DNA of 63,989 bases, counting the filler, from Porpidia crustulata (Eukaryota), in the NCBI GenBank assembly GCA_964255105.1. It is 3 parts of 3 records of this genome, joined end to end, with 100 filler letters (N's around TTAATTAATTAA, not from the genome) between each part and the next. Parts side by side here need not be neighbours in the genome. Positions count along the whole stretch, not along the records: positions 45,545 to 63,989 come from CAXUWE010000180.1; 2 more parts are not named here. The stretch is one strand, 5' to 3'. A program made the position numbers and the translations under genes. Shown in pieces: positions 59,146 through 60,425 of the stretch (within the stretch, counting starts at the first letter, position 1; every line of letters starts with the position of its first letter). The notes beneath the pieces were generated by a model that made no database searches, was not told where the DNA came from, and saw only the letters and a list, made by a program, of their open reading frames with translations.

Positions 59146-60425
59146 CTAGTCTGCGAGAGAGCTCTTGAAGTCTGCAAGCGCCTGTTTATATTCCTTCTCC
59201 GCAATCGTGAAACCATCATGAATCAGCTGTTCTTGCCTTTCGGAATGATCTTGTGTACGATCACTTCGAAATTCAAACTTATAGATCATCAGTCCTGCGC
59301 TTTTCATCTTCTCTTCGGTCTGCTGCCACCTCTTTTGCTTCGCTTGTTGCTCAGGTGTCAATTTCTCTGGTATACGGAAGGAATCATCTCTCGTCAGCGA
59401 TTGCGAGGTTTTGCATCTCCAGAAATTTTTAGTAATCTTCTGATAGCCTTCGTCATCACAAACCGAATCAGCGTCATCATTTAGGCTGTTCGACTGCTCT
59501 GCAACTTGCACCGTCAAACCTTCGAACCAGTCAGGTGAGCTACAACAACAAACTCCCTCACTGACCACATTGTTCAGCAACTTGATATCGGCCGATCCGA
59601 AAAAATTGGTGCAGACTCGATAATCAAGAGCAACATATTGCGCGGCCCATACGAGCCATCCATGCGTCGGCGTTTGCGAGCTCGAGTCGTTGGAGTGTTC
59701 AAGGTCTATTGAAGGACCGATAGGAGGTCCACCAATGGCCGACAGTACGGTCGAGCTGATGCCAGCTCGAATCCTAGCTGTCCGTCTTTTCTCCCCTGTG
59801 AAGATAGCGGCCTTGAGTAAGTAAATGCCAGTAAGGAACCAGATTTTTGGCTTCTTTCTCAAACCGTGCAAATTTCTATTGGCTCCAGAGATCCAGATCT
59901 GCAATGCTTGCACGGCTTCGACTTGAGAGAAGACTTGTTGATGCAGAAACTTTTCCGAACTACATCCTCTTCAGCGTCATGGATATAGTGGTACCCGATT
60001 AACTTACTCTTTCAAGACTACTCTAAAGCCTTCTTCGGCCTTGAGAGTTCTTCTGTGTTTTCGATCCCAGCCAGTCTCAGCCTGGAACAAGTCCGCCACG
60101 CTCATTGAGGGCTTGAAAGTCATCCCAGAAGAGAATTTGGCCTTCCATCCTTTGGTTAATGGAGTGGACCTTGCATGTGTCTTGAGATCGTGTGCACTGA
60201 AGTCACATTTAGTTATCAGGGAGTGCTTGAGCGTAAAAGAGACTTACTTCAGTCTAGAATGAGTGTAGTGTCGTGATATCGTAGGATTGGCGTAGTCCTT
60301 AAGAACGAGATTGCCCAGACACAGCTCTTCAGGATCTCTGCCAATCTCGTAAAGGAAAAATGTTGGTTTTTCGCGTGGCGCTCGACAGGATCAATGCATC
60401 CAACATGTCAGACTGGAGTTACCAT
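59146..60425 (-). CDS. Fungal gasdermin-like protein (RCD-1/HET-Q1 type), ~380 aa; start region irregular, possibly a pseudogene
   Basis: Removing GT-AG introns 60197-60247 and 59960-60007 gives one frame: PTFFLYEIGRDPEELCLGNLVLKDYANP...KIWFLTGIYLLK...AGISSTVLSAIGGPPIGPSIDL...LVWAAQYVALDY. This matches the remembered fungal gasdermin pattern (TxFL, LxLGxxxxxxxxP, xY(M/I)xTG(L/I)K, GxPxxxGxxxxx hairpin, V(F/W)AxQ). Confidence 0.6.

Follow-up and report, generated by a model that had tools for sequence, protein, structure and literature searches.

A hidden three-exon gene of Porpidia crustulata with a predicted gasdermin fold and an early in-frame stop codon

The DNA analyzed here, called the window, is a stretch of 63,989 nucleotides (filler included) from Porpidia crustulata (assembly GCA_964255105.1), made of three parts joined end to end; positions 45,545 to 63,989 come from CAXUWE010000180.1. 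Read from the sequence, its minus strand carries a hidden three-exon gene, from the ATG at 60399 to the stop at 59146, with a product of 384 residues. According to structure prediction this product has the fold of the gasdermin pore-forming domain, the nearest known protein being RCD-1 of Neurospora. It belongs to a divergent gasdermin-fold clade, by predicted structure, which is uncatalogued in the published het-Q1 list. Its C-terminal tail is made of a helix found in the whole family plus a clade-specific helical hairpin of ~70 residues. The copy in the window is probably a null allele, i.e., the result of a recent nonsense lesion. All features are localized in Table 1.

Predicted fold

Two models were computed with AlphaFold: (i) that of the window protein, i.e., the read-through protein with X at each stop (P0025; 114-row alignment; predicted local distance difference test (pLDDT) 77.9, predicted template modelling score (pTM) 0.73); (ii) that of a relative (P0142; 46-row alignment; pLDDT 76.0, pTM 0.77). 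When the window model is compared with the PDB by Foldseek, the RCD-1 pore comes first (E 2.4e-9) and the top 10 matches are all gasdermins (E 2.4e-9 to 5.6e-6). With VIA, the same model is superimposed on the RCD-1 pore over 198 of 214 residues (Z 10.2, root-mean-square deviation (rmsd) 5.2 Å) and on RCD-1-2 over 166 of 193 residues (Z 9.2, rmsd 3.8 Å).

The results for the relative are comparable. Among the Foldseek matches listed to rank 26, 21 rows out of 21 are gasdermins, again with the RCD-1 pore in first place (E 1.9e-4). A second look with VIA has only gasdermins among its top 24 entries (RCD-1-2: Z 8.8, rmsd 4.3 Å, 164 of 193 residues). An exhaustive search of 48,161 representative chains, independent of Foldseek, places gasdermins in all of the top 14 ranks; only 11 chains reach a Z of at least 5, and MACPF/CDC proteins come next (Z 3.6-4.5). 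The models of two other relatives (P0062 and P0148) made by the ESM Atlas itself reach TM values of 0.49-0.51 with a cluster from Ascomycota in which Bact_GSDM occurs, and of 0.40-0.47 with the GSDMC, GSDME, PJVK and bGSDM clusters. In the same resource, a feature score of 0.95 is obtained with a cluster in which 13% of the members carry Bact_GSDM (PF26164).

The gasdermin fold is proposed because gasdermins alone top three different searches and cover the whole domain. An earlier note, made from the sequence of this DNA, had described the product as gasdermin-like, of the RCD-1/HET-Q1 type. The predicted fold agrees with a gasdermin, gasdermins heading the PDB searches with Neurospora RCD-1 as best match in both Foldseek and VIA. 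On the other hand, the profile similarity to gasdermins that had been expected is absent from the Pfam, PADLOC, NCBIfam and PDB profile searches, and the protein is not of the catalogued HET-Q1 type.

Gene structure

Three successive stop-to-stop open reading frames (ORFs; 60244-60390, 60004-60243 and 59146-59970) lie in one frame of the minus strand. The removal of two introns leaves 1155 nt, i.e., 384 codons plus the stop TAG. The lengths of both introns (51 and 48 nt) are multiples of three, thus the three exons share one frame.

A hidden Markov model (HMM) was built from 24 full-length relatives, the window being left out, and was run on all 1575 ORFs of the window of at least 25 aa. The exon 1 piece matches HMM positions 3-45 (E 3.6e-19), the exon 2 piece positions 44-108 (E 4.4e-7) and the exon 3 piece positions 109-294 (E 1.2e-32), i.e., the three pieces are colinear with the model, end to end and in order. 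The other 1572 of these 1575 ORFs have no match.

The comparison with annotated relatives points to the same junctions. The alignment of the spliced product with a protein of Hyaloscypha variabilis (P0148, PMD43846.1) has a single ungapped block at residues 8-232, in which both junction residues (51 and 114) fall; 157 of 253 positions are identical. When the read-through protein is aligned with its relatives (alignment A2), the stretch coded by intron 2 corresponds to a gap in 18 of 18 relatives. That coded by intron 1 is missing altogether from 15 of 18, a few residues being kept in P0081, P0082 and P0032. In the AlphaFold model of the read-through protein, the intron-coded stretches have no secondary structure (block pLDDT 50-53 for intron 1 and 58-72 for intron 2). 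A search of sequencing runs gave one that contains this DNA and none of RNA; the splicing of both introns is supported by homology only.

The earlier note had seen a 255-aa ORF, which is the part of exon 3 starting at an internal Met (P0001), and had extended it in frame through two short canonical introns to TFFLYEIGRDPEELCLGNLVLKDYANP. The frame indeed extends to TFFLYEIGRDPEELCLGNLVLKDYANP, and the colinear HMM matches and the gaps of the relatives agree with both introns. The 5' end that had been set at 60425 must be abandoned, the ATG found there being in another frame (MVTPV, then a stop).

It must be noticed that the public annotations of the closest named relatives, both of Hyaloscypha variabilis, disagree with each other: P0148 contains exons 1-3 without the long tail, while P0150 has the tail and skips the region of window residues 52-114. 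At least one of these two gene models is thus probably wrong.

The 5' end and the premature stop

The frame of the exons has a single ATG (60399-60397), followed by CAT and then by TGA (60393-60391). The N-termini of the relatives have the form M(x)6-11 TFFLY, without any intron in that place (e.g., MRITMTPTEKPTFFVY in P0148 and MPSKEDKTFFLY in P0062), thus the ATG at 60399 is correctly placed. The codons from the TGA to TFFLY (TCC TGT CGA GCG CCA CGC GAA AAA CCA) include neither an ATG nor a near-cognate start, and no open frame runs from a start codon to the stop of the gene. The contig that Logan assembled independently from run X1 (depth 13) has identical letters over 59100-60520, TGA included.

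Other ways around this stop codon were considered and rejected. A third intron bypassing the TGA could use the donors GTAACT (at 60422), GTCTAA or GTCATA and the sole acceptor CGAG (at 60381); these candidates are 42-59 nt long, with poor sites and in the wrong phase. A start at the ATG 60406 is in another frame, with a stop after 25 codons.

Since the TGA stands at codon 3 and no other start is present, the copy is probably null. The TGA is aligned with Arg2 of both Hyaloscypha proteins, the remaining frame is open and the invariant and nearly invariant residues of the family are all kept, so the inactivation seems recent. The state of the neighbourhood is consistent with a null copy: signs of damage are seen in the upstream gene too, and beyond this gene there is a transposase.

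The family

With exon 3, 24 close relatives are found, all of them unnamed ORF fragments. The family amounts to 111 representative clusters at E<=0.001, 45 of which are at E<=1e-10. Annotated Ascomycota members of ~300 aa are present in Dothideomycetes, Eurotiomycetes, Sordariomycetes, Leotiomycetes and Lecanoromycetes. The annotated members that were looked up are called «hypothetical» or «uncharacterized»; one record from Fusarium circinatum is called major facilitator superfamily transporter.

Beyond these members, the profile of the family gives two matches at E<=0.1 in 401 Cytophagales genomes (13.6 and 12.4 bits, i.e., chance level) and none in four other genomes. Among JGI metagenome loci, 67 pattern matches were obtained and none was confirmed. 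The locus tags of five relatives were found in no paper, and no description of the clade was found among the titles and the beginnings of abstracts in a gasdermin/fungi/Foldseek listing.

The linker and the C-terminal region

The WAAQY strand, the Asp-rich linker and the helical tail of ~100 aa put forward by the earlier note are all present. In the window protein, ~100 residues follow the linker and ~114 follow the gasdermin-fold domain. In the wider family the domain is followed by a single helix of ~25 residues; that of P0142 (residues 286-309) has block pLDDT values of 91 and 82. The hairpin is conserved up to its ...ADFKSSL end in close relatives and is also present in the Hyaloscypha protein P0150. 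Its structural matches are only generic antiparallel coiled coils, with Z values of 8-10 that have little weight for helical matches. A Pfam match of the tail to RRP7 (E 0.003-0.011) is below the cut-off and was taken as coiled-coil noise.

Two variants of this region were observed. In the relative P0024, the C-terminus is not a helical tail but a hydrophobic stretch with basic residues behind it, resembling a tail anchor. In P0005, P0012 and P0013, the YQKIxENFW helix motif is tandemly duplicated right after the acidic linker.

Table 1. Position of the gene, of its parts and of the neighbouring genes in the window.
Feature	Positions	Strand	Remarks
Exon 1	60248-60399	minus	152 nt; begins at the only in-frame ATG (60399-60397) and ends at the first donor; N-terminus of the family including the TFFLY strand
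In-frame TGA at codon 3 (ATG CAT TGA)	60391-60393	minus	no other start before the conserved N-terminus
TFFLY strand	60363-60349	minus	within exon 1
Intron 1	60197-60247	minus	51 nt, GTAAGT...CAG; contains an in-frame TAA
Exon 2	60008-60196	minus	189 nt; codes for the first hairpin-forming region of the fold
Intron 2	59960-60007	minus	48 nt, GTAAGT...TAG; contains an in-frame TAA and two TGA
Exon 3	59146-59959	minus	814 nt including the stop TAG (59148-59146); rest of the gasdermin-fold domain, linker and tail
Gasdermin-fold domain (predicted)	59485-60372	minus	residues 10-305 of the read-through protein P0025, intron-coded stretches included
WAAQY strand	59649-59635	minus	precedes the acidic linker
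Acidic linker NDDADSVCDDEG	59446-59481	minus	acidic across the whole family; candidate proteolytic release site
First tail helix	59407-59454	minus	P0025 residues 316-331, YQKITKNFW...; aligned with the one C-terminal helix that relatives of ~300 aa have
Antiparallel helical hairpin	59149-59370	minus	P0025 residues 344-417; helices 349-377 and 385-416; block pLDDT 82-96
CHAT protease gene	49973-53757	plus	ORFs 49973-50485 (probable upstream exon) and 50530-53757; C-terminal CHAT domain, PF12770, E 4.6e-32
351-aa ORF	48628-49680	minus	head-to-head with the CHAT gene, 272 bp apart
Acyl-CoA-ligase-like (AMP-binding) gene	60518-62101	minus	upstream of the gasdermin-like gene; break near 60690-60700
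Tc1/mariner-type transposase ORF	62535-63668	minus	HTH_Tnp_Tc3_2 E 1e-11, DDE_3 E 2e-11; flanks the region

Comparison with known gasdermins

RCD-1 of Neurospora crassa (RCD-1-1 and RCD-1-2; PDB 8jyx, 8jyy and 8jyz) is likewise fungal, with an N-terminal domain of similar size, and comes first in the structural comparisons of the two models (Z of 10.2 and 9.2 with that of the window protein, of 8.8 and 8.0 with that of P0142). On the contrary, no profile match links the two groups and their identity is 8-15%. Excerpts of the published work give 257 aa for RCD-1-1 and 244 aa for RCD-1-2, and describe an action without cleavage through the co-existence of two alleles. An acidic linker and a C-terminal helix distinguish the present family from RCD-1; the clade of the window adds to them the hairpin of ~70 residues.

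The fungal gasdermins HET-Q1 and Q1-6, which go with HET-Q2-like S8 or TPR-CHAT proteases, share with the window gene the gasdermin fold in Ascomycota and a further C-terminal segment after the domain that forms the pore. The CHAT gene within 10 kb, helical in its N-terminal part, is also in common. They differ from the window gene in these respects: (i) HET-Q1 has a C-terminal peptide of ~5 kDa, to be compared with the ~114 residues behind the N-terminal domain here; (ii) the window gene is not adjacent to the protease gene; (iii) its frame is closed at codon 3. Passages of Clave et al. 2022 (PMC8851545) report 1,884 het-Q1 homologs, 80% of them with a protease gene within 10 kb and 19% with CHAT, the processing of Q1-6 by a TPR-CHAT protease, and the pairing of bacterial gasdermins as well with CHAT or caspase-like proteases.

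Seven members of the family were looked for in Dataset S1 of that paper (PMC8851545), i.e., EFY97033.1, KAF1829670.1, KAF2148560.1, CEL09719.1, PMD43846.1, KIW95562.1 and OAP60501.1. They come from strains that the dataset covers (Metarhizium robertsii ARSEF 23, Decorospora gaudefroyi P77, Myriangium duriaei CBS 260.36, Aspergillus calidoustus, Hyaloscypha variabilis F, Cladophialophora bantiana CBS 173.52 and Fonsecaea erecta CBS 125763), and none of the seven is listed. In six of the seven genomes, no listed gasdermin or protease accession is found within about five numbers of the family member. The Decorospora member (P0080, KAF1829670.1) is three to four accession numbers away from a listed het-Q1/S8 pair (KAF1829666.1 and KAF1829667.1), and two gasdermin lineages may share one island in Decorospora gaudefroyi.

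Bacterial gasdermins (PDB 7n50, 7n51, 7n52, 8sl0 and 9a84) have the same fold (Z 7.0-8.6) and, like the family at large, a short C-terminal helix after the domain. They differ by the lack of any sequence link (PADLOC 0/19; nothing credible in the 401 Cytophagales genomes) and, in the alignment of the family, no conserved N-terminal cysteine is seen. Bacterial gasdermins are palmitoylated.

Genomic neighbourhood

The N-terminal part of the CHAT gene product is helical, with only weak TPR matches (E 0.038-0.1), and its CHAT domain has no match to PDB sequences. Between the end of the CHAT ORF and the 3' end of the gasdermin-like gene lie 5389 bp, which is within the published 10 kb; proximity is all that links the two genes.

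A search with the 351-aa ORF that faces the CHAT gene gives 91 hits, which form a conserved family; those of its members that are named come mainly from lichen-forming Lecanoromycetes, and also from Endocarpon. No match to the ORF was obtained in Pfam or in the PDB. The possibility that it is a second gasdermin was rejected (hhalign probability 22% with the single sequence and 3.6% with the profile), and the two families are unrelated. The real partner of the CHAT protease could be this ORF.

On the other side, the stop of the acyl-CoA-ligase-like gene is only 118 nt from the ATG of the gasdermin-like gene. Its AMP-binding_C domain is split over two frames; since there is no room for an intron, this is an apparent frameshift of 1 nt. 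Positions 1-47 kb of the window contain housekeeping genes, with neither an NLR nor an S8 gene, thus 48-64 kb looks like an accessory stretch.

The earlier note had also proposed the CHAT protease as the activator and, with it, a three-gene immunity island. No basis for such an island was found, as two unrelated genes intervene and the CHAT gene has its own divergent neighbour.

Mode of action and state of the gene

The reading retained here, in which moderate confidence is placed for its parts taken jointly, is that the gene belongs to a gasdermin-fold family whose intact relatives are inhibited by their tail and released by cleavage of the linker, and that the copy of the window is null. By analogy with known gasdermins, the N-terminal domain of the intact relatives would form pores in membranes and be kept inactive by the C-terminal helix. 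In the clade of the window, the hairpin would add to this hold, either as an extra lock or as a docking surface. A cut in the acidic linker would release the N-terminal domain, by analogy with HET-Q1, Q1-6 and bacterial gasdermins. The TPR-like CHAT protease encoded 5.4 kb away might be the activator; this step, considered separately, is tentative and the balance leans somewhat against it.

Several observations weigh against the reading as a whole. As regards the fold, the identity to solved gasdermins is as low as stated above (8-15%), the tool itself rates Z values of 8-10 as «middling», and Foldseek gives only two matches with E<=0.001 for P0142. Both models dip under pLDDT 50 at the tips of the hairpins, and that of P0025 includes 33 intron-coded residues and five X. 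As regards the sequence, the Pfam Gasdermin family (PF04598) is matched neither by the exons (three proteins, E<=10), nor by 16 proteins (E<=1), nor by 114 members (E<=0.1). None of 19 family proteins is matched in PADLOC, nothing relevant appears in NCBIfam, and PDB profile searches with alignments A1 and A2 return no gasdermin but chance matches (E 0.36-0.71). As regards the mechanism, the best structural match, RCD-1, works without cleavage. The link to the CHAT protease is weakened by two genes that lie between it and the gasdermin-like gene, i.e., that of a Fung_rhodopsin-like membrane protein (24.9 bits, below the cut-off) and that of a P450 (E 5.3e-34), and by the closer divergent partner candidate of the CHAT gene, the 351-aa ORF. 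As regards the null allele, the confirming Logan contig may derive from the same sample, and in exon 3 only 12 of 109 strongly conserved columns deviate from the consensus (the window being at rank 8 of 24). A frame that is mostly intact, with so few deviations, leaves room for read-through or for a polymorphism of the strain.

Another reading is that of a gene functional in this very copy, through read-through of the UGA, a polymorphic site or an unseen start, with an acidic linker cut by the CHAT protease, the whole forming one immunity locus. The frame is open apart from the TGA, with its conserved residues kept, and a well-modelled helix follows the acidic linker. A CHAT gene within 10 kb fits the published clustering, and TPR-CHAT proteases process a fungal gasdermin, as stated in passages of the same paper (PMC8851545); a chance proximity is unlikely given the few CHAT genes per genome (an estimate, not computed). 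Such a functional locus is nevertheless judged unlikely. The TGA at codon 3 is the same in the second assembly and no alternative start is present; the ATG lies within 118 nt of the stop of the upstream gene; two unrelated genes intervene, while the CHAT gene is head-to-head, at 272 bp, with another conserved gene. Moreover, six of the seven genomes of relatives have no published het-Q2-like neighbour within ~5 accession numbers, the exception being Decorospora, near an S8 pair. The mode of RCD-1 offers a serious rival of another kind, although its probability is also considered low: the gasdermin would act without cleavage, in allorecognition or self-triggered, with no relation to CHAT, and the partner of the CHAT protease would be the 351-aa ORF. 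It is true that no search gives a better structural match than RCD-1 and that null alleles are common at allorecognition loci. Excerpts on RCD-1 describe a control by the co-existence of two alleles, and the 351-aa ORF family is conserved (91 hits), on the opposite strand and 272 bp from the CHAT gene. Yet the acidic linker and the C-terminal helix, always present in the family, are the layout of cleaved gasdermins, and the excerpts on RCD-1-1 and RCD-1-2 (257 and 244 aa) do not mention a C-terminal inhibitory domain. No fold or domain was recognised in the 351-aa family, thus whether it acts as a substrate of CHAT can only be guessed.

The fold could also serve another purpose than cell death, i.e., a lipid-binding or structural role. 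A role other than pore formation is debated for pejvakin, the named members of the present family are all called «hypothetical protein», and a shared fold does not show function. This is the least probable of the readings considered: the window model matches gasdermins in the pore state over 198 of 214 residues, both long hairpins included, and the layout of linker and inhibitory helix is kept. A bolder proposal, which is regarded as quite improbable, is that fungal gasdermins comprise, besides RCD-1 and HET-Q1, a third lineage that is uncatalogued, namely this family. Its long-tailed clade would have a new regulatory design, in which a coiled-coil hairpin, added to the inhibitory helix, serves either as second lock or for the docking of a TPR-CHAT sensor protease whose gene is distant and not next door. 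In its boldest variant, the UGA at codon 3 may be not a lesion but a leaky translational brake on a suicidal protein.

Conclusions

That fungi have gasdermins, and that these are paired with S8 or CHAT proteases, is not new. What is added here is a sizeable family of Ascomycota that would be gasdermins by predicted structure, nearest to RCD-1. As this family was missed by the published het-Q1 catalogue, the counts of fungal pyroptosis-like systems are underestimates. The copy of the window being closed at codon 3, an intact relative is the proper subject for functional work. One clade of the family has a helical C-terminal region of ~100 residues, i.e., far longer than the short inhibitory peptides thought to be typical of microbial gasdermins. 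This long tail lets the evolution of inhibition be probed, between the short C-terminal segments of microbial gasdermins and the long C-terminal domains of those of animals.

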